Of a stretch of DNA of 43,267 nt, positions 3,520-43,005 are shown in pieces; the first letter of the stretch is position 1, and each line of letters starts with the position of its first letter. The stretch comes from a bacterium. Its GTDB lineage: Bacteria; Patescibacteriota; Minisyncoccia; Phycocordibacterales; PALSA-1337. The stretch is from assembly GCA_021782175.1 (NCBI GenBank), contig JAJXVL010000002.1, forward strand, positions 1 to 43,267, in the 5' to 3' direction. A program made the translations under genes and the position numbers. The notes under the pieces are model-generated. The model was not told where the DNA came from, did not search any database, and saw only the letters and a list, made by a program, of their open reading frames with translations.

Positions 3520-3909
3520 ATGATTACCGCATTTATGCTCGGTCGCGTTATTCTAGGCCTTTATTTCCTGGAAGGCGCTTACGGACATCTCGTCAAGCCG
3601 GCTGGTCTCATCGGCTATGCCAGCTCCAAGGGCGTGAAGTCACCGAAGTTTGCTGTTATCGGTACAGGCATCCTCATGGCTCTCGGTGGCTTGTCACTTT
3701 TGCTAGGTGTCCGACCGCATTACGGCTTGGCTTTGCTCATCATTTTCCTTTTGGGCACTTCCTTCAAGATGCATGCCTACTGGAAAGAGACTGATCCGAT
3801 GGCCAAGATGGGTGACCGAATCAATTTCACCAAGAACATGGCTCTGATCGGCGCGCTCCTCATGATGTTCGCGATCGCTTCGCCTTGGGTCTACGCCCTC
3901 AATTGGTAA
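3520..3909 (+). CDS. DoxX family membrane protein
   Basis: 129 aa with four hydrophobic helices. N-terminal LGRVILGLYFLEGAYGHL and the KMHAYW region are DoxX/DoxD-like. Confidence 0.7.
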   Translation: MITAFMLGRVILGLYFLEGAYGHLVKPAGLIGYASSKGVKSPKFAVIGTGILMALGGLSLLLGVRPHYGLALLIIFLLGTSFKMHAYWKETDPMAKMGDRINFTKNMALIGALLMMFAIASPWVYALNW

Positions 3910-3928
3910 GGTTGTTTTTTCTGTCAGT

Positions 3929-3967
3929 AACAAAACAGCAGACGGTTCATCCGTCTGCTGTTTTGTT
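3929..3967 (+). terminator. Rho-independent terminator after the DoxX gene
   Basis: Perfect 17-bp stem AACAAAACAGCAGACGG / CCGTCTGCTGTTTTGTT with a 5-nt loop, running into a T-rich tail. Confidence 0.8.
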
Positions 3968-4014
3968 TTGAAACCTTTAGTCCCATCAATCGTATTTTAT
4001 CGGAGAGTAGTCTG

Positions 4015-4122
4015 TACCAGTGACACATTGTTCTTTTGAGCCAAAGCCGAAGGTCGTGCCGAAACAATCGATGAAGGTCCGGCAGGTTCGTTTTGTCTCA
4101 AAAGAACAATGTGTCACTGGTA
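4015..4122 (+). repeat. Hairpin element copy A: 26-bp perfect stem around a 56-nt conserved core (candidate structured RNA or MITE-like element)
   Basis: 4015-4040 pairs perfectly with 4097-4122. The core 4041-4096 matches the reverse complement of 15254-15313 at 52 of 55 positions. Confidence 0.6.
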
Positions 4123-4155
4123 TTGTATTCACTGATTAGTTAATCCTGAAAACCA

Positions 4156-4161
4156 TATAAT
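4156..4161 (+). promoter_or_regulatory. TATAAT box placing a transcription start at the base of the multi-stem element
   Basis: Exact TATAAT. The first paired nucleotide of the long closing stem (G4169) lies 7-8 nt downstream, the expected TSS distance. Confidence 0.4.
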
Positions 4162-4168
4162 CCTAAGA

Positions 4169-4277
4169 GGGACTTCAATGTTCGGTCGAAAGGACCCTGT
4201 GAGCGCGACTGGCGCGAGCATAGAGGAAATTCCCAGCAGGGAATTTCCGTGTCCTGGAGACCGAATATTGAAGTCCC
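4169..4277 (+). ncRNA. Candidate structured ncRNA of unknown family (closing stem plus three inner helices)
   Basis: - P1: 4169-4187 pairs with 4259-4277 (19 bp, including one G4180-U4266 wobble that is only valid on the + strand).
- P2: 4191-4195 pairs with 4251-4255.
- P3: small GC hairpin at 4203-4216.
- P4: perfect 10-bp hairpin, 4225-4234 with 4239-4248, loop AGCA. Confidence 0.45.
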
Positions 4278-4289
4278 TTGAGGATTCGA

Positions 4290-4334
4290 GGGCTATTTGA
4301 TGCTAACTATCTTAGGGCTATTCAAGGCTAACTA
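4290..4334. repeat. Two 20-nt imperfect direct repeats at 25-nt spacing
   Basis: GGGCTATTTGATGCTAACTA (4290-4309) and GGGCTATTCAAGGCTAACTA (4315-4334) are identical at 17 of 20 positions. Confidence 0.5.
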
Positions 4335-4367
4335 ACTGATGGTTTCTGATTATTCAACAAGAAATTA

Positions 4368-5138
4368 TCAGTTGTTCCTCGGTATCGTCACATGCTGTTC
4401 ACCGAAAACTCCTGGCGCTACCGCGTATTTCGGAAAATAAATAGTAATCTCGTAGTCCGTGAAGGTGAAATTCTGGAAATTATCAGCCACTGGTGCCGTC
4501 CCATCATCCAGGATGCTTTGCGAGAGGTGACCGTTTGACGCCTGAGTCAGGGTGTCAGTCAGTTGAGACTTGGCTAAGGCTGATAATTTGGTCAGCCAGT
4601 CTGGCTGGTTAGGGAAGAGATCAGCTAGAGTCATCATCATACCGGTTTTTTCGTCGAAATTGAAAGTCTGCAATTCTTGATGACCATTGGCGCCACCGCT
4701 ATAGGAGTCATAACGCTCAATGAAGCTGATATAGTGCCCGTTTATTTGGGCGGGTTGCCAAGAAGCTATGAATGAGTAAGCACTTGGTGCTAGCTCGGCC
4801 AGAGGATCACCCGTAGCTTTCCTCGCGGCCTCGCTCGAAGCTACCTCAGCCCGGAAGTTTGCCAGGCGGCTTGTAGTCGAGGAAGCAATCATCTTATTCC
4901 AGGCGGCCGGTAGAGACGAAAACTGTGGGTATTCTACATTGACGATAGGTGAGGAGGTTGCTGTCTCGTGAATAGAAACAATTTGCATCGGTATCGTCGA
5001 GGTGTTGGAAACTGCGGTTTGAGTGGCAGGAGCCGAGGTCAGCGGGGTAGCGTATTGCGCACTGATGAAGTAAATACCTGTTAGCAAACCGATCAAGAGG
5101 ACTAGAATCACGATCAAACTGGTAGTGGATATTTTCAT
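4368..5138 (-). CDS. Membrane-anchored DUF3298/DUF4163 (RsiV-like extracytoplasmic domain) protein
   Basis: 256 aa with an N-terminal TM helix. YPQFSS, TFNFDEKTGMMMTLADLF and the C-terminal YEITIYFPKYAVAPGVFG match my recollection of the DUF4163 + DUF3298 pattern. Confidence 0.65.
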   Translation of the reverse strand: MKISTTSLIVILVLLIGLLTGIYFISAQYATPLTSAPATQTAVSNTSTIPMQIVSIHETATSSPIVNVEYPQFSSLPAAWNKMIASSTTSRLANFRAEVASSEAARKATGDPLAELAPSAYSFIASWQPAQINGHYISFIERYDSYSGGANGHQELQTFNFDEKTGMMMTLADLFPNQPDWLTKLSALAKSQLTDTLTQASNGHLSQSILDDGTAPVADNFQNFTFTDYEITIYFPKYAVAPGVFGEQHVTIPRNN

Positions 5139-5191: not shown

Positions 5192-5197
5192 TATAAT
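5192..5197 (+). promoter_or_regulatory. TATAAT box 7 nt upstream of ATG 5205 (leaderless-type promoter)
   Basis: Exact TATAAT with a 7-nt spacer (aagattt). Confidence 0.5.
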
Positions 5198-8375: not shown

Positions 8376-8381
8376 TATAAT
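8376..8381 (+). promoter_or_regulatory. TATAAT box 7 nt upstream of ATG 8389 (leaderless-type promoter)
   Basis: Exact TATAAT with a 7-nt spacer (aggcgaa). Confidence 0.5.
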
Positions 8382-11142: not shown

Positions 11143-12230
11143 AGCCTTTTCTCAAACAAAAAAAGACCAGCAAACTGCTCGGTTGGTTGCTAGCTGGATT
11201 GTTCGCGGTCATCGCCACACCTTGGGTGGTTTCAGCGCATGAAGTTTATGTTTTGTCCTCTAGTCAGATCAACCAAGCTCTGGCCATGCCATCATTCAAT
11301 CTGTGGACGGAGATTGTCAGCCATCTTAGTCAATTCGGCTTCTGGGCTTTCATCGGTATCTTGTTGGTCTTCGGTATTTTCTGGATTTCCACCATGCGTT
11401 TCCTAGAAAGACGGCTCGATCCTTTTTTCTTGAAAATAAGACCTTATGCCACTTTCATCGCCCGCTTAACTATCGGTCTGTCGTTCTTGGCGGCAGCTTT
11501 CTATCAGGCTATTTATGGCCCAGAATTGCCCCTAGTAGCCAATTTTGGCCCCTACGCCGGCCCAATTACTCTGGCTCTAGTACTTATCGGTCTGGCGATT
11601 GTCGTGGGCTTCTATGCGCGTTTGGCGGCTCTAATAGCTCTTGTCCTGTATGGAATATTGGCCTACGAACACGGCTCGTATATGCTGACCTATGTCAATT
11701 ATCTCGGTGAGATCATTGTGCTTCTGATCCTCGGGGCACATAGTCTCAGTTTGGATCGGCTCTTCCGCAGGAAGTCAGCTGGTTCACCTGTCTCTGTCCG
11801 GCCAGCGTGGTTTCGTAATTTTGCGGATTATTTGAAACCTCGCAGTTTCGCCATCCTGCGAGTACTTTTTGGTACGGCTCTGATCTATGCTTCGGTCTAC
11901 GCCAAAATTTTGCATAATGGTCTGGCGCTGCTCACTGTGGAACAATATCATCTCGACAAGCTTCTGGGATTTGAACCGCACTTCCTGATCATGGGCGGAG
12001 CTATCGTGGAGATTTTGATCGGGTTGTTCTTCATTCTGGGTATTGAGATTCGCTTCACTTCGCTCTTCCTCCTTTTCTGGTTGAGCTTGTCGCTGTGGTT
12101 CTTCGGGGAAGTGGTCTGGCCGCATTTGATCTTGATCGGCATCCCGATCGCTTATGTCTTCTATGGTTATGATGACTATTCGGTGGAAGGATATTTCTTC
12201 CGAAACAAGAAATACGAGCCGGTTTTGTGA
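11139..12230 (+). CDS. Polytopic membrane protein, apparently two DoxX-like halves in tandem
   Basis: I moved the start to ATG 11139, which overlaps the TGA of the oxidase gene (ATGA). The first 28 codons of the track ORF lie inside the oxidase CDS. About 363 aa: an N-terminal signal/TM, then two roughly 150-aa helix bundles, each resembling DoxX (inference by eye). Confidence 0.55.
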   Translation: MKPFLKQKKTSKLLGWLLAGLFAVIATPWVVSAHEVYVLSSSQINQALAMPSFNLWTEIVSHLSQFGFWAFIGILLVFGIFWISTMRFLERRLDPFFLKIRPYATFIARLTIGLSFLAAAFYQAIYGPELPLVANFGPYAGPITLALVLIGLAIVVGFYARLAALIALVLYGILAYEHGSYMLTYVNYLGEIIVLLILGAHSLSLDRLFRRKSAGSPVSVRPAWFRNFADYLKPRSFAILRVLFGTALIYASVYAKILHNGLALLTVEQYHLDKLLGFEPHFLIMGGAIVEILIGLFFILGIEIRFTSLFLLFWLSLSLWFFGEVVWPHLILIGIPIAYVFYGYDDYSVEGYFFRNKKYEPVL

Positions 12231-15207: not shown

Positions 15208-15231
15208 CAACATATGTCCTGACGAAGTGAA

Positions 15232-15335
15232 AGAGCCCTAGCATATCCTTTTGTACCAAAACGAACCTGCCAGACCTTCACCGACTGTTTCGGCACGACC
15301 TTCGGCTTTGGTTCAAAAGGATATGCCAGGGCTCT
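15232..15335 (-). repeat. Hairpin element copy B (inverted relative to copy A)
   Basis: A 22-bp stem, 15232-15253 with 15314-15335, has a single A15240-C15327 mismatch that becomes a U-G wobble on the minus strand. The core 15254-15313 is the reverse complement of the copy A core. Confidence 0.6.
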
Positions 15336-15382
15336 CTCGTGTGTCGGAGCAAGAATCAGGTGTGAGGATGAGGGTCTATGCA

Positions 15383-16072: not shown

Positions 16073-16078
16073 ATTATA
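16073..16078 (-). promoter_or_regulatory. Extended -10 TGcTATAAT (minus strand), 6 nt upstream of ATG 16066
   Basis: The minus strand reads ctgcTATAATagctttATG. The box lies in the 18-nt gap after the permease stop. Confidence 0.5.
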
Positions 16079-23096: not shown

Positions 23097-23102
23097 TATA
23101 AT
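23097..23102 (+). promoter_or_regulatory. Extended -10 TGtTATAAT, 8 nt upstream of ATG 23111
   Basis: Exact TATAAT preceded by TGt. Confidence 0.5.
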
Positions 23103-28086: not shown

Positions 28087-28104
28087 TATTGCTGTTGTGG
28101 AAAA

Positions 28105-28140
28105 AATGGCCCCAAGCCGTCAATTGACGGCTTGGGGCCA
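28105..28140 (+). other. Perfect 16-bp hairpin between rpsP and the KH-protein gene (attenuator or processing candidate)
   Basis: ATGGCCCCAAGCCGTC aatt GACGGCTTGGGGCCAT, with no U-tract on the + strand. A second 9-bp hairpin lies at 28156-28182. Confidence 0.5.
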
Positions 28141-28206
28141 TCTGTTACAATTCACTGTAGTACAGGTTCGTTGTCTGTACGACTCTTACCAGCTATTTCA
28201 CTGAAT

Positions 28207-28557: not shown

Positions 28558-28596
28558 TTCGTAATTCCTCTTTTCTTCTCAAGAATTATTGGGAAC

Positions 28597-28625
28597 AAAA
28601 AGCGAACTTTTAAAGTTCGCTTTTT
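28597..28625. terminator. Bidirectional rho-independent terminator
   Basis: AAAAAGCGAAC ttttaaa GTTCGCTTTTT. It overlaps the last codons of the minus-strand DoxX gene. Confidence 0.7.
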
Positions 28626-29065
28626 GTTTGGGTGCCACCGGGCAAAACAATCGTCGGTGTGGCAAAAGCGTCATGACGCATGAAGCGGTCCAGGGTGAAC
28701 CAATCAGAACCGTTGAGCCAGATGGTTAGGGTGGCTGCCGCGATGCCGAAGTCGCGTACGCCAGTCGCATTCAGGCCGACAATGACAAAAATATCGATAA
28801 TATGCAGAGCCAAGAGAGCAGATGTCCATCGTGTGAAGAATCCCAACAGCAAGGCTGAACCCAGGATTATTTCGAAAATGGCGTTCAAAAAAACAATAGT
28901 AGTCACGGCCAGACCAGAGAAGTTAACAACACTATCAGGTACGTAAGCTACCCATTGATTGGGATCGGCAATCTGATTGATACCAAACCACAAGAAGACC
29001 AGAGCAATGCTCAGTCGCAAGACCACCGGGGAGAATAGACGCAGATTTTTCATAAAAGAAGTCAT
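28610..29065 (-). CDS. DoxX family membrane protein
   Basis: 151 aa with four helices. LRLSIALVFLWFGINQI and the GFFTRWTSALLALH pattern are typical of DoxX. Confidence 0.75.
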   Translation of the reverse strand: MTSFMKNLRLFSPVVLRLSIALVFLWFGINQIADPNQWVAYVPDSVVNFSGLAVTTIVFLNAIFEIILGSALLLGFFTRWTSALLALHIIDIFVIVGLNATGVRDFGIAAATLTIWLNGSDWFTLDRFMRHDAFATPTIVLPGGTQTKSEL

Positions 29066-31918: not shown

Positions 31919-32214
31919 AACAATTCCTCCTTGGTAAGTATTTGTTTGTGCTGGTTATTTCAACCACACCATATTACGCAGTTATGAACAAGTCAACTTG
32001 ACTTATCACGGCTAATTTGATAGGGTCTCCTCAACTTCGCAGCTTGAGTTCTGCCCAAGCGGAGGATTAGAAAGGTTCAAAATTAATCCTACTCGTGTCT
32101 ACCCACTCGAGGTAATCCAAACATTTCGCCGTTCTCAATAGATGAGAGCGGTCTTTTGCGTTTTTGTCGTCCAGTTTTCATTACTACAGTTTCTTTATTA
32201 TCATTTTTACCAAC

Positions 32215-35406
<3,192 letters not shown>

Positions 35407-35450
35407 CCGAATGATTCAGATCCACTTAACTCTCATCATTCAACACTCAC

Positions 35451-38400
35451 ATGCAAACTCCCATCAAAAAACAAGTTGATTCACCTCAGTTTGATCTGGT
35501 CAAACTATCCCTTTCTTCACCGGAAAAGATTCTCGAATGGTCTTATGGCGAGATTACCAAGCCAGAAACCATCAACTATCGCACTCAGCGATCCGAGAAG
35601 AATGGTTTGTTCGATGAAAGAATCTTCGGTCCGGACCGAGATTATGAATGTTATTGTGGTAAGTATCGCGGCATTCGCTACAAGGGTATCGTCTGTGAAA
35701 AATGTGGCGTAGAAATCACTCGTTCGATTGTGCGCCGTGAACGCATGGGTCATATTGAATTGGCCACGCCGGTTTCGCATATTTGGTTCTTGCGTAGCGT
35801 CCCATCTCGCATCGGTTTGGTTCTCGGTATGACCACGGCTGATTTGGAAAAAGTTGTTTATTTTGCCGGCTACATCGCTATCAAGGTAGATCAGGCCGGC
35901 AAAGCCAAGTTCCTGAAAGAACTTGATGCTGAGTACAAGAACAAGGTCAAAACTGCCCAAGATGACAAAACCAAGGAAGCTCTGAAGGAACTCTTGCTCG
36001 GTGCTCGTCGAGAGATTGAGTCTATTGAGCCTGGCTTGGTCATGGATGAGGTCACTTATCACAAATATGCCGTCAAATACGGTGCTTTCTTCGAGGCCTC
36101 TATTGGCGCCGAAGCTATCTACGATTTGCTCAAGAAGGTTGATCTGGTCAAGCTGCAGCAGGAAATCGAGCAGGCTCACACTGACGCCAGCGCGGCCGAC
36201 CGTGAAAGGCTATCCAAGCGTCTGTCATTGGTGAAGCAGATGATCAAGGCTAATGTTCGTCCGGAATGGATGTTCCTGGTGCGCATTCCAGTAATTCCGC
36301 CGGGACTGCGTCCGATGGTGGCTCTGGATGGTGGTCGTTATGCCACCTCCGATGTCAACGATCTCTATCGCCGCGTGATCAACCGCAACAATCGTTTGCT
36401 CAAGCTCAAAGAGATCAAAGCTCCGGAAGTTATTTTGCGCAACGAGAAACGTATTTTGCAAGAAGCTGTAGACGCCCTGATCGATAATTCCATCAGACAT
36501 TCTTCATCGGCTGGCGCGGCCGCGCTCGCTCGTGAGAAGCGCGCCCTCAAATCGCTATCAGATGGCTTGAAGTCAAAGCGTGGTCTCTTCCGTCAGAATT
36601 TGCTCGGTAAGCGCGTAGACTACTCCGGCCGCTCAGTGATCGTGGTCGGTCCAGAGCTCAAATTGGATGAATGCGGCTTGCCCAAGCATATGGCTCTGGA
36701 ACTCTTCCGACCTTTTGTGATTTCCGGTCTCTTGAAGCGCGAGTTGGCCTACAACATTCGTGGAGCTAATCGTTTGATTGATGATGGCGCCAAGGAGGTC
36801 TGGGAAATTCTGGAAGAGGTAATCAAAGGCAAGTATGTGCTTCTGAACCGTGCGCCGACTCTGCACCGCTTGGGTATCCAGGCCTTCCGCCCGACTCTGA
36901 TCGAGGGTAATGCTATTCAGGTGCACCCGCTGGTTTGTACGGCTTTCAACGCTGACTTCGACGGTGACCAAATGGCCGTTCACGTGCCGCTCTCTGACGA
37001 AGCCCAACTCGAAGCCAAGGAAATTATGGCTTCAGACAAGAATATTCTGAAACCAGGTAACAATGATCCGACTGTGGCTGCCAAGATGCTCGATATTGTT
37101 CTCGGTTGTTTCTGGGTGACCAAACAAGTCCCCGGAGCCAAGGGTGAAGGCAAGATCTTCGAATCGCCGGACGCCGCCACGCTCGCGCATTCTTTCAAGG
37201 AAGTGGACCTGCGTGCCAAGATCAAGGTTCTGGCACCGACTGACAATCAGAAGTATGCCGCTCAAGCCGGAACGATCTTCGAGACAACTGTAGGACGCAT
37301 CCTCTTCAACAATGTTTTGCCGTCTGATTACATCTTCATCAACGAAGAAGTCGGTCGCAAGAAGCTCGGCGCCATTATCGACGATATGATTACGGCTCAT
37401 GGTGCCAATCATATTGCTCCGATTCTGGATCGGATCAAGACTTTTGGTTTCGGTTACACCACTTATTCGGGTACTACTTGGGGTATTGATGACATCATGG
37501 TACCGGCTGCCAAACATGAGATCATTACCAAAGCCAAGGACCAGGCTGCGGTGGTCACTGGTCAATTCGATGAAGGTTTGCTGACCGAAGAAGAAAGGGT
37601 TCGTAAACATGTGGAAATCTGGCAAAAGGCCAAAGGGGAAGTCGAGAAGACCATCCCTGGCTCACTCGACAAGATGGGCTCAGTCTACGATATGGTTACC
37701 TCCGGGGCTCGTGGTTCACTCTCGCAAATCACACAAATGGCTGGTATGAAAGGTTTGATTGCTTCTGTTTCCGGTGAGACCATCGAATTCCCGATCCTGT
37801 CATGTGCCAAGGAAGGTTTGACGCCTATCGAATATTTCATCACGACGCACGGTTCCCGCAAAGGTTTGACCGACACAGCTCTCAACACCGCCAAGGCTGG
37901 TTATCTGACCCGTAAGCTCTTCGTGGTAGCCCAGGACGTAGTGGTCTCAGAGGAAGACTGCGGCACCAAGGATTCTATTATTATTCACCGTCAGACGGCT
38001 TCTGGCATGAACATTCCGCTTTCCAAGAATATCCGCGGCCGCGTTATTGCTGAGGATATTCAGGTTGGTGGACAGGTGATCTTCAAGAAGGGTCATCTCA
38101 TCTCCAAGACCGACGCCCAAAAGATCGAAGAGGCTGGAGTCAATGAAGTCCGCGTGCGTTCGCCGCTCTCTTGCAAGACGGTTCGCGGTGTGTGTGCCCA
38201 ATGTTATGGTATGGATCTGGGTGGTAACAAGATTGTCTCACTCGGTGAGGCGGTTGGTACCGTAGCTGCCCAAGCTATCGGTGAGCCTGGTACCCAATTG
38301 ACCATGCGTACTTTCCACGCCGGTGGTACGGCTTCTCAGGGTGGTGATATCACCATGGGTCTGCCGCGCGTCGAAGAAGTCTTCGAGAAGCGCCGCCCCA

Positions 38401-39131
38401 AGATCCCCGCGGTTGTAGCGACGGTCAACGGCGTCATCATGGAAGTCAAGGATTTGGGCAAGGAAAAAGTGATTACCATGCTTCCAGAAATCGAAGATCA
38501 GACCAAGGGTGCCAAGCCGGCGCCGGTCGAGTACACCTTCTCTTATCGTCGTACAACCCTTGTAAAGGTTGGTGATCGGGTCAAGAAGGGTGATTTGTTG
38601 ACTGACGGCTCAGCTGATATTGATGAGGTCTTCGAATATGGCGGCGAGGAACGCGCCAAGGATTATGTTATTACCGAAGTGGGTAAAATTTACGAGTTGC
38701 AGGGTGAAACAGTCTCTCGCAAGCATATCGAGCTCATAGTCAAACAGATGTTCAGCCGCCGCCGTGTGCTTGAGGCTGGTGACACCAATCTGACCGAAGG
38801 TATGATCGTTGACGACATTCTTCTTTCCGAAGAAAATGCCGCCGCCAAGGCTGCTGGAGGTGCTCCGGCCAAGGTTGCCAACCTGATCATGGGTATCACT
38901 GAAACCTCTCTGTCTAGCAAGAGTTTCTTGTCAGCCGCTTCCTTCCAACACACGACCCGCGTCCTTATCTCCAATGCGGTGCGTGGTGCTTCTGATGACC
39001 TTTCAGGTCTGATGGAAAATGTGATTATTGGTCGCTTGGTACCGGCTGGAACTGGTTTCGTCGGTTCGGCCAAGCAGCAGATGCTCAAACGCGAACTGCC
39101 CAAGGATAATGCTGATACAGTCTCGGAATAG
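35451..39131 (+). CDS. rpoC: DNA-directed RNA polymerase subunit beta-prime
   Basis: 1226 aa with the zinc-binding CYCGKYRGIRYKGIVCEKCG, the catalytic NADFDGD, and bridge-helix and trigger-loop regions. Confidence 0.95.
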   Translation: MQTPIKKQVDSPQFDLVKLSLSSPEKILEWSYGEITKPETINYRTQRSEKNGLFDERIFGPDRDYECYCGKYRGIRYKGIVCEKCGVEITRSIVRRERMGHIELATPVSHIWFLRSVPSRIGLVLGMTTADLEKVVYFAGYIAIKVDQAGKAKFLKELDAEYKNKVKTAQDDKTKEALKELLLGARREIESIEPGLVMDEVTYHKYAVKYGAFFEASIGAEAIYDLLKKVDLVKLQQEIEQAHTDASAADRERLSKRLSLVKQMIKANVRPEWMFLVRIPVIPPGLRPMVALDGGRYATSDVNDLYRRVINRNNRLLKLKEIKAPEVILRNEKRILQEAVDALIDNSIRHSSSAGAAALAREKRALKSLSDGLKSKRGLFRQNLLGKRVDYSGRSVIVVGPELKLDECGLPKHMALELFRPFVISGLLKRELAYNIRGANRLIDDGAKEVWEILEEVIKGKYVLLNRAPTLHRLGIQAFRPTLIEGNAIQVHPLVCTAFNADFDGDQMAVHVPLSDEAQLEAKEIMASDKNILKPGNNDPTVAAKMLDIVLGCFWVTKQVPGAKGEGKIFESPDAATLAHSFKEVDLRAKIKVLAPTDNQKYAAQAGTIFETTVGRILFNNVLPSDYIFINEEVGRKKLGAIIDDMITAHGANHIAPILDRIKTFGFGYTTYSGTTWGIDDIMVPAAKHEIITKAKDQAAVVTGQFDEGLLTEEERVRKHVEIWQKAKGEVEKTIPGSLDKMGSVYDMVTSGARGSLSQITQMAGMKGLIASVSGETIEFPILSCAKEGLTPIEYFITTHGSRKGLTDTALNTAKAGYLTRKLFVVAQDVVVSEEDCGTKDSIIIHRQTASGMNIPLSKNIRGRVIAEDIQVGGQVIFKKGHLISKTDAQKIEEAGVNEVRVRSPLSCKTVRGVCAQCYGMDLGGNKIVSLGEAVGTVAAQAIGEPGTQLTMRTFHAGGTASQGGDITMGLPRVEEVFEKRRPKIPAVVATVNGVIMEVKDLGKEKVITMLPEIEDQTKGAKPAPVEYTFSYRRTTLVKVGDRVKKGDLLTDGSADIDEVFEYGGEERAKDYVITEVGKIYELQGETVSRKHIELIVKQMFSRRRVLEAGDTNLTEGMIVDDILLSEENAAAKAAGGAPAKVANLIMGITETSLSSKSFLSAASFQHTTRVLISNAVRGASDDLSGLMENVIIGRLVPAGTGFVGSAKQQMLKRELPKDNADTVSE

Positions 39132-39162
39132 TGAGGTGATCTGGAGTTGATCCAAGTTTTTC

Positions 39163-39190
39163 AAAAATCGGCTAATATTAGCCGGTTTTT
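39163..39190 (+). terminator. Rho-independent terminator after rpoC
   Basis: The CGGCTAAT/ATTAGCCG palindrome is followed by GTTTTT. Confidence 0.75.
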
Positions 39191-39217
39191 GATTTGTGAT
39201 ATGATACCGAAACAAAT

Positions 39218-39835
39218 ATGCCCAAAATACTCAAACCGATACCGGTCATTGTCATCCATGGTGGTAGTGCCTACGATACCTATGAACAGTATCTGACTGA
39301 TTTGCGTCGTGACGATTTCGATCCCGAAAGAGATTTGACCAAAGATTGGAAAACCGAACTCGGCAAGGTGCTTGGACGACGTTATCGAGTGATCAATCCG
39401 TGTATGCCTAATGCCGAGAATGCCAAATATCTTGAGTGGGCTATTTGGTTCAAAAAGTGCCAACCTTATTTTGCCGATGGCATGATCTTGGTAGGGCATT
39501 CTTTGGGTAGTATTTTCCTAGCCAAATATTTGGCCGAAAATCGCTTGCCCAAAAAAGTTGCGGCGGTATGTCTGGTGTCATCGCCCTGGTCTGATGCGAG
39601 CCACAAGAAGCCTTTGGGTGATTTCTTGCTACCGGCGAAATTTGATCGTTTGGCGGCTTATGGATCAAGATTGCACTTCTTCCATAGTGAGGATGACCCC
39701 ATCGTCAATTTCGCCAGTCTAGGGCACTATGCGAACGCTTTACCAGATGCCATATTGCATATCTACAAGAATCGTGGTCATTTCATTAGTCCAAGTTTTC
39801 CTGAAATAGTAAAACTCATTAAACAGCTTCATTGA
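39218..39835 (+). CDS. Alpha/beta hydrolase (YdeN/RBBP9-like serine hydrolase)
   Basis: 205 aa with the nucleophile elbow GHSLG, plus SEDDPIV and RGHF as candidate Asp and His of the triad. Confidence 0.7.
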   Translation: MPKILKPIPVIVIHGGSAYDTYEQYLTDLRRDDFDPERDLTKDWKTELGKVLGRRYRVINPCMPNAENAKYLEWAIWFKKCQPYFADGMILVGHSLGSIFLAKYLAENRLPKKVAAVCLVSSPWSDASHKKPLGDFLLPAKFDRLAAYGSRLHFFHSEDDPIVNFASLGHYANALPDAILHIYKNRGHFISPSFPEIVKLIKQLH

Positions 39836-39879
39836 AGCCAAGTTCGGCAAAGTCTGGCGCTTTGGGGTATACTACGCCC

Positions 39880-41670
39880 ATGAATCGTTCGACTGTCGAA
39901 GAAATCAAGGCCCGTCTGGCCATTGAGGATTTGATTGGCTCCTATATCAAGCTGGAGAAAGCCGGCAAATCATTCAAAGCACGCTGTCCTTTTCATCATG
40001 AGAAGACGGCTTCCTTCTTCGTTTCGCCTGATCGTGGCGGCTACTATTGTTTCGGTTGTGGTGCCAAAGGGGATATTTTTTCATTTGTGGAACAATTCGA
40101 AGGTTTGGACTTCAAAGGTGCTTTGAAGATTCTAGCCGAGAGAACGGGAGTGCCACTGGTCTTCGATCAGGCGGTAGATAGCGAGAGAGATCAGCTGTTC
40201 CGTATTATGGAAGCCGCGGCCAAATATTTCGAGGGAGCCCTAGCTCAAGCCAAAGAAGCCCAAGAATATATCAGTAGTCGTGGTGTTTCTGACAAAACTA
40301 GGACCGATTTTCGGATCGGTTGGGCACCGCTTGGTTGGCGTAATCTCTATGATTTCTTGCGTTCCCAAAAGTGGTCCAACGAGCTGATTGAACGCTCAGG
40401 TTTGGCAAAAAGAGCCTCAGACGGTACTGGTAACTACTACGATCGTTTCCGGGGCCGGGTAATGTTTCCGCTTTGTGATTCGAGCGGCCGAGTCATTGCT
40501 TTTTCCGGGCGTATTTTGAAGGATGATGGTCAGTCAGCCAAATATCTGAATAGTCCCGACACTCCACTCTTCGACAAATCTTCGGTGTTGTATGGCCTCG
40601 ATAAGGCCAAGAGTTTCATCCGCCGACTCGATTACGCTATTCTGGTAGAAGGACAAATGGACCTGATCATGTCACATCAAGCCGGTATCAAGAATACGGT
40701 GGCTTCTTCGGGTACAGCCCTGGCTGACGTTGAGGCCAACCGTGATGGGGTAGTCAATAATCTCGGACTGCTGAGGCGTTTGTCAGGCAATATTATCATC
40801 GCTTTTGATGCCGACACCGCCGGCCGCAAGGCCGCTATGCGTGCGGCTAGTATCGCGCTCACTCTGGGCATGGATGTAAAAATTGCTGATATCCAGGGTG
40901 GCAAGGACCCGGCGGATTTGGTCGCCCATAATCCTGAAGACTGGAAGAATATTTTGCGCGTGGCCAAGCCCATAGTGGAATTCGAATTGAATAATGTCAT
41001 CAGAGAGGTGTCTGATCCGCGCAAAATTCCCAGAGCCGTACGAGAAAGAGTTTTGCCGTTTGTGGTCGCCATAGGCAGTGCCACTGACCGCGCTTATGCC
41101 TTGAAGTTGATTGCCGACCGGACAGATTTGCCTGAAGCGGCCCTTTGGGATGATTTGGCTATGATCGAGGCCAAAACTCAACAGCCCGCCGGTGCAGTCA
41201 AATCCGAACAAGGACCGGCCAAAACAGCGTCATTCTCAGCAACGAATAGCGATATGACCTCGGCAATGACCAATGCGGCCAGATTAGATATGGTCTCTCG
41301 TCGTTTGATCGGTCTGCTCAATTTGATCGAGAGGACTGATGCACCAAAAGCGGCGGCCTATCGTACCAAGATCAATGAGATCGCTCCCGGCTCGTTCGAC
41401 CAGATGGTCCAACGTTCTTTGCCGATCTTGAGCGACTTGGCCTTTGAAGCAGAAGCTTTTTATGGTGCGGAACCAGAACGTTTTGACTTCCACATGACCG
41501 AACTGATTACCAATTATCAGGCTGATCTCTTGAATGGGGAATTGGTTGAGACTATGGCTGCACTCCGGGCAGCTGAGAAGGCCGGTGACCAAGCGGTTGT
41601 AGCCTCTCTGGCTCAAAAATGCCAAGAATTGTCAGCCCGCAAGGCGGTTATATTCTCGGCTCATAAATAA
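39880..41670 (+). CDS. dnaG: DNA primase
   Basis: The track start is TTG 39832; I prefer ATG 39880, 6 nt after TATACT. It has the zinc finger CPFHHEKTASFFVSPDRGGYYCFGCGAKGD and TOPRIM motifs (VEGQMD, DADTAGRKA). About 596 aa. Confidence 0.9.
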   Translation: MNRSTVEEIKARLAIEDLIGSYIKLEKAGKSFKARCPFHHEKTASFFVSPDRGGYYCFGCGAKGDIFSFVEQFEGLDFKGALKILAERTGVPLVFDQAVDSERDQLFRIMEAAAKYFEGALAQAKEAQEYISSRGVSDKTRTDFRIGWAPLGWRNLYDFLRSQKWSNELIERSGLAKRASDGTGNYYDRFRGRVMFPLCDSSGRVIAFSGRILKDDGQSAKYLNSPDTPLFDKSSVLYGLDKAKSFIRRLDYAILVEGQMDLIMSHQAGIKNTVASSGTALADVEANRDGVVNNLGLLRRLSGNIIIAFDADTAGRKAAMRAASIALTLGMDVKIADIQGGKDPADLVAHNPEDWKNILRVAKPIVEFELNNVIREVSDPRKIPRAVRERVLPFVVAIGSATDRAYALKLIADRTDLPEAALWDDLAMIEAKTQQPAGAVKSEQGPAKTASFSATNSDMTSAMTNAARLDMVSRRLIGLLNLIERTDAPKAAAYRTKINEIAPGSFDQMVQRSLPILSDLAFEAEAFYGAEPERFDFHMTELITNYQADLLNGELVETMAALRAAEKAGDQAVVASLAQKCQELSARKAVIFSAHK

Positions 41671-41703
41671 GCCCGAACTCTTGCCTGATCGTTTATCATC
41701 AAG

Positions 41704-41709
41704 TATAAT
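41704..41709 (+). promoter_or_regulatory. TATAAT box 30 nt upstream of the rpoD ATG
   Basis: Exact TATAAT in the 69-nt dnaG-rpoD spacer. Confidence 0.4.
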
Positions 41710-41739
41710 GATGTTCAATTTAATCTCACAGACTTTTAC

Positions 41740-43005
41740 ATGAGCACACACAAAAAAGCAGCCCATTCTGCCAAGCATTCTCGTCGTTCGACAGCACACA
41801 AAGCCCCAGCCAAAAAACCCTCAGCTCGTCCTTCTTCCAAGACCAAGGTCAAAGCCAAATCAACCAAGAGTAAGGTCAAATCTGCCAAATCAATCGGATC
41901 TGGCAAGGCCACTTCCGCCGCCAAGAACTTGGAAGCCAAGGCCACTATTCTGATCCAGAAAGGCCGTGACCGTGGTTTCGTGACATACGATGAAATTCTC
42001 AAGGAGTTTCCACAAATCGAAAATGACATTGTCTTTTTGGATGAGCTCTATGGTCAATTGTCTACTGCCGGCGTGGATATTCTCGAAGGTGGAGGTATTC
42101 TCGAAGTTGAAGAACTCAAGGAAAAGGAGAAGAAGCAGATGCCGCATTATTCGCGCGGCGGATCTGATAGCGCTTATGACTCGATCCAGATGTATCTGAA
42201 GGAGATCGGTCAGTATTCACTCATCAACGCCGCTCAAGAAAAAGAGCTAGCTCGCCGCATCCAGAACGGTGATCTAGAAGCCAAGAACCTGCTAGCCAAG
42301 GCCAATTTGCGTCTAGTTGTTTCCATTGCCAAGAAGTATGTTGGTCGTTCACCCGACCTCACGCTCCTGGATCTTATCCAAGAAGGTAATCTGGGCTTGT
42401 TCCGTGCCGTGGATAAGTTCGATTGGACCAAGGGTTACAAATTCTCAACTTATGCTACTTGGTGGATTCGCCAAGCTATTACACGCGCTCTAGCCGATCA
42501 GTCTCGTACTATTCGTGTACCGGTCCATATGGTTGAGACGATTGCCAAATACAAGCAAGTAGTCCGCCGTTTGATGCAGGATCTGGGCCGCGAACCCTTG
42601 CCTGATGAAATCGCCACCGAAATGGGCATGGATGTCGAAAAGATCTATCAGATCGAGAAAATCGAGCAAGATGTGGTGTCACTCGAATTGCCTGTTGGTG
42701 ATGATGGTGATGACAGCAAGTCCACTCTGCAGGATTTCATTCCGGACGACAAAATCCTTTCACCGGATCAGGAATCATCCCGTCGTATTTTGCGTGATCA
42801 GGTCAACACCATCTTGAATGATTTGTCAGATAAAGAACGCCAGATTCTAGAGTTGCGTCATGGTTTGAACGATGGTATTACGCATACCCTCGAAGAAGTC
42901 GGCCGCGTCTTCAACGTCACTCGCGAGCGTATTCGCCAGATTGAAGCCAAAGCTCACGAGAAGATCCGTCAGCACGATCAGTCCAATAGGCTCAAGAACT
43001 ACTAA
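41740..43005 (+). CDS. rpoD: Primary (group 1) sigma-70 factor with a lysine-rich N-terminal tail
   Basis: Region 2.4 ([13 protein letters not shown]), region 3, and the region 4.2 HTH ([23 protein letters not shown]) are present. It sits immediately after dnaG, as in MMS operons. Confidence 0.9.

Follow-up and report, generated by a model that had tools for sequence, protein, structure and literature searches.

A candidate structured RNA in the longest intergenic gap of a Patescibacteria contig is probably the conserved centre of a dispersed palindromic repeat

The stretch of DNA analysed here (the window) is 43,267 nucleotides (nt) of contig JAJXVL010000002.1, and its longest non-coding gap, as an earlier note made from the sequence alone had stated, is the 458 nt at 3910-4367 between a DoxX gene (3520-3909, + strand) and a convergent gene for a DUF3298/PdaC protein (4368-5138, - strand). 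That note had proposed a discrete, promoter-equipped non-coding RNA gene at 4156-4285 within this gap. We found that the predicted fold is present as described and that the sequence is one copy of a palindromic repeat, named el2 here and centred on 4169-4277, which occurs in many copies at unrelated loci and is not a single-copy gene. Based on its RpoB (84-90% identity to proteins under the names Candidatus Parcubacteria, Paceibacterota and Taylorbacteria), the host is assigned to the Patescibacteria/Paceibacteria, that is to the candidate phyla radiation (CPR). The window sequence matches mine-drainage metagenomes only.

All the helices listed for this fold were found at their coordinates by a sequence check and RNA folding, namely the 19-bp closing helix of 4169-4187 with 4259-4277, in which G4180-U4266 is the sole wobble pair, the AGGAC/GTCCT helix of 4191-4195 with 4251-4255, the small GC hairpin, which was recovered as a CGCG hairpin within 4197-4221, the perfect 10-bp hairpin of 4225-4248, and the outer ATCCT/AGGAT pairing. 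The minimum free energy of the RNA of 4156-4290 was -79.8 kcal/mol on the + strand compared to -36.6 ± 3.9 kcal/mol in shuffled sequences (z = -11.2), and none of 200 shuffles matched it; on the - strand it was -66.0 kcal/mol (z = -9.3). Two features of the gap had been overlooked. The palindromic symmetry around el2 reaches out to about 4136-4335 (inverted repeat I4), and a second hairpin element that is equally strong, el1, lies at 4015-4122 (-65.6 kcal/mol, z = -10.2). The names el1 and el3 are used for the neighbouring repeat families. The parts of the window copy of el2 are the following.

4136-4335, + strand: full el2 unit of this copy, in which I4 pairs 4136-4150 with 4321-4335; the outer arms are degraded and the centre is conserved
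4156-4161, + strand: TATAAT hexamer, in the window copy only, overlapping the outer ATCCT/AGGAT pairing
4169-4187, + strand: 5' arm of the closing helix (stem A, 19 bp), every pair of which is retained in the four copies
4178-4300, + strand: 40-codon open reading frame (ORF)
4188-4190, + strand: 5' side (GAA) of a 3x3 internal loop that is rich in purines, opposite GGA at 4256-4258 (columns 20-22 and 88-90 of alignment A4, below)
4191-4255, + strand: three-way-junction core, with the AGGAC/GTCCT helix around hairpins a and b, followed by the conserved CCGTGT
4197-4221, + strand: hairpin a, within the core
4225-4248, + strand: hairpin b with an AGCA loop, within the core; it has three compensatory pairs
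4259-4277, + strand: stem A, 3' arm of the closing helix, from folding and pair counts
4289-4338, + strand: two tandem 25-nt units (AGGGCTA...CTAAC; direct repeat D1), the right-arm module of el2

The copy number was estimated from the word depth of contigs from four mine-drainage DNA runs that were placed on 3900-4400. The contig depth was 150-500 over 4171-4276 whereas it was 5-10 on the flanking genes, a ratio of 25-45 in the four runs, and the copy number that is derived from this depth is an upper bound because the related strains of the community share the repeat. Over the window copy the depth climbs at about 4169 and falls off between 4276 and 4320. Contigs that enter el2 exit into many differing flanks (loose ends), and metagenome contigs and metagenome-assembled genome (MAG) contigs of the locus stop within el1 or at about 4279-4296. 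It is the repeat nature of el2 that makes the assemblies and MAGs of this lineage break at the window locus. Four full copies were recovered.

Window, 4169-4277, + strand: in the convergent gap between the DoxX and DUF3298 genes
Locus L010, 1342-1450, + strand: downstream of priA; found through a called ORF of 53 aa (P0001)
Locus L018, 8229-8337, + strand: in the 10-kb extensions of the window on a 95-kb contig
Locus L018, 5149-5257, - strand: in the same extensions; it carries a different closing stem, stem B

The priA locus with el2 was seen as L010 to L013. The copies lie dispersed among housekeeping genes (rplK, priA and dnaG, for example), and all four are found 0-75 nt 3' of a stop codon, two of them in convergent gaps. 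In 61 kb of one contig there are three el2 and two el1 copies, and the density of el2 is about one copy per 20 kb. Patescibacteria are known for very small, streamlined genomes and those of this lineage are about 1 Mb; at that size the density fits the 25-45-fold depth.

When the four full copies were aligned (alignment A4, gap-free, 109 columns) and the pairs were counted on the predicted structure of the window copy, 97.7% of the pair cells held standard pairs and 15 of the 43 pairs were changed on both sides. None of 500 shuffles was as good, and sliding the partners by 1-3 columns lowered the pairing to 28-52%. Variable positions were found at 38 of the 86 paired positions and at only 2 of the 23 unpaired ones (Fisher p = 0.0014), that is, 21 of the 23 unpaired positions are invariant. 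The three-way-junction core is 84-97% identical between copies and the tandem G-A/A-G of the internal loop is invariant in all four. The stem-B copy of L018 has a core that is 84-88% identical to that of the stem-A copies and a stem that is 28-34% identical; this closing stem (CAAAGCAGTCATGAAATTG...) is different in sequence, yet it pairs at 19 of 19 positions, 11 pairs of the closing helix being altered on both sides. At least four stem-B copies with differing flanks are present among the loose ends. A further subfamily, from related populations of a second study, is compensated in the 10-bp hairpin at three pairs (4227A>G with 4246T>C, 4229A>T with 4244T>A, and 4232C>T with 4241G>A), and this triple-compensated variant is found complete at L018 8229-8337. 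Behind other copies of el2 the 25-nt right-arm module recurs, as judged by the consensus of the right-flank loose ends. The fold passed the homology and covariation check suggested in the earlier note, in that compensatory changes preserve the helices in related copies. Taken together, the 97.7% pairing, the compensation at 15 of 43 pairs, the exchanged stem and the 21 invariant unpaired positions argue that the fold itself is under constraint. The family is recognised by a closing helix of at least 19 bp that is free in sequence, by an internal loop of purines with tandem G-A, by a GGAC/GUCC helix, and by a three-way junction that bears a short GC hairpin and a hairpin of 10-11 bp with an NGCA cap, after which comes CCGUGU. 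In each of the four copies the + strand folds more stably than the - strand, and on the + strand there are 11 G-U cells versus 4 A-C cells, which correspond to about 7 versus 3 events.

The same substitutions bear on the 40-codon ORF at 4178-4300. If it encoded a small protein the repeat would be a family of small genes, and there are an ATG behind a GAGG-like motif in the stem-A copies, a 53-aa product (P0001) called on one copy, and four of six frames that are open across the window copy. When two copies were compared, however, there were 3 synonymous versus 8 non-synonymous codon changes, the differences fell 6/2/5 on the three codon positions with no third-position bias, and between copies there is no conserved peptide. 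An in-frame ATG is missing from the stem-B copy, the ORF has no Pfam match, and a single such protein was found among 5.8 billion clusters. The substitutions track base pairs and do not follow the codon pattern of the ORF, which was the other check named in the earlier note. The ORF is a by-product of the repeat and not a gene, and a small protein is extremely improbable.

A host site at the level of DNA was also considered, where a nucleoid protein or a topoisomerase, as at REP elements and bacterial interspersed mosaic elements, or a symmetric dimer, would bind or process the duplex or a cruciform. Symmetric compensatory changes are also expected of a palindrome that is bound by a dimer, the hairpin centres are near-perfect palindromes around GC (CCCAGCAGGG, CCCTGCAGGG and CCTTGCAAGG), and the copy number is high. 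But the closing stems are wholly different between subfamilies and species, which argues against the reading of a fixed duplex sequence; a single-stranded fold is favoured by the asymmetric core and by the G-T versus A-C bias, and the presence of the element among relatives is patchy. We therefore regard such a site as very improbable.

A covariance model was built from A4 and run over related loci. The gap between the DoxX and DUF3298 genes is 7 nt in L029, 82 nt in L028 and 146 nt in L023 compared to 458 nt in the window, and this variation indicates that the long gap of the window is the product of insertions. The 82-nt gap holds a plain 24-bp hairpin, and the 146-nt gap holds an element of different sequence with the same architecture in the opposite orientation (L023 10783-10903; 46.7 bits, E about 1e-8). 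A second element of this relative, which has 62% GC, was scored at L023 4017-4139 (26.6 bits) and overlaps, at the 5' end, an annotated ORF of 390 aa that has no Pfam match; both elements have the el2 architecture with unrelated stems. In L025, from a related Paceibacteria host whose RpoB is 90% identical, an element of 114 nt, or 38 codons (11812-11925; 34.3 bits), lies in frame within a variable linker of dnaG. It folds at -74 kcal/mol (z = -9.6) and the frame runs on into the conserved C-terminus of DnaG. These relatives have the purine loop and the GGAC/GUCC helix of el2, and in them hairpin b is preceded by YAG(A)GG, capped by an NGCA loop and followed by CCGUGU; the stems have unrelated sequences. 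No el2-like element was found in five other relatives (about 94 kb). The family is thus patchily present among related species and is absent from the same gap in some of them.

These positions raise the question whether el2 has been domesticated by the host as a co-transcribed RNA cis-element that would protect 3' ends, serve as terminator or insulator where two genes converge, or offer a site to RNase III, a role that would be compatible with mobility. The placement of the four copies 0-75 nt past a stop codon, two of them in convergent gaps, would fit such a role, as would the fold kept by covariation with invariant loop letters, the more stable + strand in every copy, and the finding that the same convergent gap in relatives holds either an el2-like element or a plain 24-bp hairpin. 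RNA-level effects are also documented for the ERIC and Correia repeats (PMC10969869). On the other hand, the orientation of el2 to the upstream gene is inconsistent, and in the two same-direction gaps it is the weaker - strand form that would be in the mRNA. The helix is not followed by a U-tract, a terminator at 3929-3967 already serves the DoxX gene, the gap of L029 has only 7 nt and needs no element, and one relative copy lies within a coding sequence. A cis-element is possible but, on this balance, we consider it doubtful.

Of the promoter proposed in the earlier note, only the hexamer was confirmed. An exact TATAAT is present at 4156-4161, but there is no acceptable -35 box, a sigma-70 scan calls no promoter, and the other copies lack the hexamer. 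The equivalent site reads AGAAGC, TTCTAC or AAGTAC in the other full copies, and TCAAAT, CTCTAT, CTGGAA or CCATAC in flank reads. The hexamer sits in the decayed outer left arm of the window copy, and it is an accident of that arm and not a feature of the family. Exact TATAAT was found 25 times in the window versus 12 expected (examples are 5192-5197, 8376-8381, 23097-23102 and, on the - strand, 16073-16078), and about ten sites precede a start codon by only 4-11 nt. This suggests that many mRNAs of the host are leaderless. Because of this excess, and because many are directly before start codons, an exact TATAAT is probably a credible -10 box in this genome, and the window copy alone may be transcribed from it. 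Three metatranscriptomes of the same study, the sole RNA runs tied to the locus, contained no transcripts of the host organism at all, and short matches to rpoB/rpoC came from other species.

An independent small RNA (sRNA) gene, in this copy or in every copy, would start at about 4168-4169 and give a stable + strand RNA of about 110-130 nt. The TATAAT lies 7-8 nt ahead of the first paired G, the hexamer is twice as frequent as expected and often close to start codons, the G-U pairs favour the + strand, and there is a weak terminator-like stem at 4275-4292. The missing -35 box and the negative promoter scan speak against it, and so does the lack of the hexamer in the three other full copies and in all the flank reads, since a conserved promoter of its own is what a stand-alone sRNA would have. 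Tens of copies without a shared promoter are unlike sRNA gene families, one relative sits within dnaG, and there is no Rfam match. An sRNA gene is therefore improbable, and as a property of the family a stand-alone sRNA gene is unlikely. The discrete promoter-equipped gene of the earlier note has not been borne out, and what lies in its place is a dispersed repeat at about 25-45 times the depth of its flanks.

The rest of the gap is also made of repeats. The elements outside el2, and the copies with which they were compared, are the following.

Window 3929-3967, + strand: intrinsic-terminator-like hairpin with a T-run, 3' of the DoxX gene
Window 3973-4018, + strand: left fragment of el3, the third palindromic repeat
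Window 4015-4122, + strand: el1, a 108-nt long hairpin of the second multi-copy family
Window 15229-15338, - strand: el1 copy with the same 72-nt core and a different closing stem, in a convergent gap
L010 980-1087, - strand: third el1 copy compared
L010 1100-1292 and L011 6588-6780: complete el3 with 35-nt arms, directly upstream of the el2 unit at the priA locus

The contig depth over the el1 core at 4033-4104 was 70-250, which is 10-25 times that of the flanks, and the 72-nt core is 90-92% identical in the three copies. The closing stem of 18 bp of the copy at 15229-15338 is wholly different and yet fully complementary. Both window copies of el1 follow a DoxX-family gene in a convergent gap, and the SDR/DoxD gap that hosts the second of them is 18 nt in the relative L030. 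In the window el1 occupies the place of the right half of el3, which suggests that this half was replaced by a nested insertion or by recombination between repeats. The stretch that follows el3 in L010 and L011 is about 90% identical to window 4118-4295. The window gap at 3973-4335 is thus a mosaic of el3, el1 and el2, and el2 nests with other repeat families. L010 and L011 share el3, el2 and priA, and the DNA to the left of el3 differs (el1 and def in L010, a PKD-domain gene in L011); either strains were rearranged at the repeat or one MAG contig is chimeric. The window has other strong palindromes, at 28098-28149 (26-nt arms, no spacer), 28594-28628 and 39161-39192, which are unrelated to el1 and el2 by blastn and are probably bidirectional terminators. 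The gene order of 32164-43005, rpoB-rpoC, a hydrolase, dnaG and rpoD and not the ribosomal rpsL-rpsG, is unusual, and it is conserved in the loci L024, L025 and L031 of related Paceibacteria.

We consider it probable, with some reserve, that the el2 fold is the conserved centre (a core of about 110 nt in a unit of about 200 nt) of a family of dispersed non-coding palindromic repeats that resembles MITEs (transposable elements of the miniature inverted-repeat type), Rickettsia palindromic elements (RPEs) and repetitive extragenic palindromes (REPs). The tens of copies, the near-identity of copies at unrelated loci, the patchiness, the nesting and the survival 3' of genes, now and then in frame inside one, are what small dispersed palindromic repeats (RPE, ERIC, Correia, REP and BOX/RUP among them) are known for, and in el2 the pairing is kept by compensatory change with the unpaired letters invariant. 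According to a review of MITEs, nested clusters of repeats, in-frame RPE insertions and inversion of elements are ordinary for such repeats (PMC10969869). Like a classical MITE, el2 is small, non-coding and dispersed (110-200 nt, four full copies at unrelated loci), but it does not have conserved terminal inverted repeats; stems A and B are 28-34% identical whereas the cores are 84-88% identical, and the outer arms decay outward. RPE and el2 are both palindromic repeats of about 100-150 nt with several families and tens of copies in a small host-dependent genome, and both are found between genes and in frame within coding sequence without breaking it (PMC10969869), as el2 is in dnaG of L025, where the linker tolerates a palindrome of this length in frame. 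They differ in phylum, and el2 is mostly intergenic, has a three-way-junction fold with invariant letters and has no conserved peptide; a relationship in sequence is not expected. With the ERIC elements (or intergenic repeat units, IRU) and the Correia elements (CREE), el2 shares the dispersed imperfect palindromes of about 100-200 nt at 3' ends in either orientation. ERIC and Correia are often transcribed with their neighbours, fortuitous promoters are possible in them, and their long stems are RNase III/E substrates (PMC10969869). Unlike el2, whose termini vary and where no duplication was seen, Correia has conserved 26-bp terminal repeats and TA duplications, and in contrast to both of these families the promoter-like hexamer is not a family feature of el2. 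The pneumococcal BOX, RUP and SPRITE families bunch and interinsert between genes (PMC10969869), as do the repeats in the 3973-4335 mosaic; they are unrelated to el2 in sequence and host, and BOX is linear-modular (boxA-B-C) whereas el2 has a core within exchangeable stems. El2 shares with REP and IS200/IS605 the high-copy extragenic hairpins and the compensatory pairing. The enzymes of REP/REPIN-RAYT and IS200/IS605 (Y1/HUH) read a folded single strand, and the free stems, the fixed unpaired letters and the strand bias of el2 fit with this. El2 has no GTAG-headed imperfect palindrome of 20-40 nt, which is the REP/REPIN unit, and consists of one long hairpin with a three-way junction at its tip. 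The T-shaped hairpin of the parvovirus inverted terminal repeat, a long stem with two internal palindromes that is read by an HUH nuclease on single-stranded DNA, is like el2 in shape only, in that a long stem closes two small palindromes at a three-way junction; el2 is chromosomal, internal and multi-copy with no replicon and no Rep gene, and there is no evidence of a relationship. Literature searches gave no description of such repeats in Patescibacteria/Paceibacteria, and el2 is a new family within the known class of dispersed palindromic repeats, in a group for which no earlier description was found.

A likely way in which this would come about is that el2 is non-autonomous mobile DNA of the MITE/RPE/REP kind and that the copying machinery recognises a folded single strand or a cruciform and not conserved termini, modelled on the HUH/Y1 transposases with the IS200/IS605 and REP hairpins. 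Recognition of structure would explain why the stems change freely while they remain paired and why there are no conserved ends and no target duplications. Copies would survive chiefly just downstream of genes and, more speculatively, copies that are read through might form very stable RNA hairpins that are able to end or protect transcripts.

Several observations weigh against a mobile repeat of this kind, besides the ceiling on the depth-based copy number given above. The host sequence that was read, roughly 120 kb, contained no transposase of any type, Y1/HUH and DDE included, and no alleles with an empty site were seen when these were sought as joints in seven DNA runs. No direct repeat that could be a target-site duplication was found beside the four el2 copies, whose exact ends are uncertain, and the four copies have no sharp conserved termini; in a search for TA targets or duplications TACC...GGTA was found to flank two el1 copies and not the third, and nothing consistent was found around el2. 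Conservation is higher at the centre than at the ends, whereas a classical DDE-type MITE shows the reverse. A + strand bias is no more than suggested by the surplus of G-U over A-C cells, and the strong constraint on unpaired letters could equally stem from a role in the host, as RNA or as a site bound by protein. El2 and, by analogy, el1 could be a so far undescribed structure-specified element of the CPR, in which a conserved core of some 75 nt, whose junction and loop letters are fixed, would be functional, either as an RNA module (protein- or ribozyme-like) or as the site of a new hairpin-reading mobilisation enzyme. If this core were the functional unit, the closing helix would be exchangeable, maybe through insertion of the core at the dyads of other palindromes; alternatively, the exchangeable helix may carry information that is specific to a locus or subfamily. 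We rate this reading as rather improbable, and the preferred explanation remains a dispersed repeat of the MITE/RPE/REP kind.

Database searches and other candidates gave the following. Rfam had nothing on el2 in the window at gathering score or at E up to 10, and nothing at E up to 0.01 on the four loci with other copies. El2 therefore matches no curated RNA family, ribozymes and riboswitches included, in agreement with the earlier comparison by eye to SRP, 6S, tRNA, tmRNA and RNase P RNA. The matches to microRNA precursors that Rfam gave at loose scores on the neighbouring hairpin are noise, and the window is devoid of tRNA and tmRNA genes. In species-representative genomes the 19-mer of the closing stem had three single matches in unrelated phyla, compared to about nine expected by chance by our own estimate, and these were taken as chance. 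There was no match to an el2 22-mer or to the el1 core pattern in JGI metagenomes, none in IMG/VR viral scans and none by blastn in phage and plasmid collections. An integron attC site was rejected since, of the R''/R' core sites (RYYYAAC ... GTTRRRY), GTTRRRY is absent (GTTCGGT fails at position 4) and the copies are scattered among housekeeping genes without cassette arrays. Hammerhead and other known ribozymes were rejected as there is neither a motif nor an Rfam match, a retron msr/msd as there is no reverse transcriptase nearby and el2 is multi-copy, and a TIGR or CRISPR-like array as the copies are dispersed singletons.

For annotation, these data remove a false sRNA gene call. For the biology of the group, they place at least three families of structured palindromic repeats in one streamlined Patescibacteria genome, with relatives of el2 reaching other Paceibacteria, including one within dnaG. 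The combination of strong covariation, invariant unpaired letters and exchangeable stems makes el2 a clean case for deciding between a transposase that acts on single-stranded DNA and a host factor that binds RNA.

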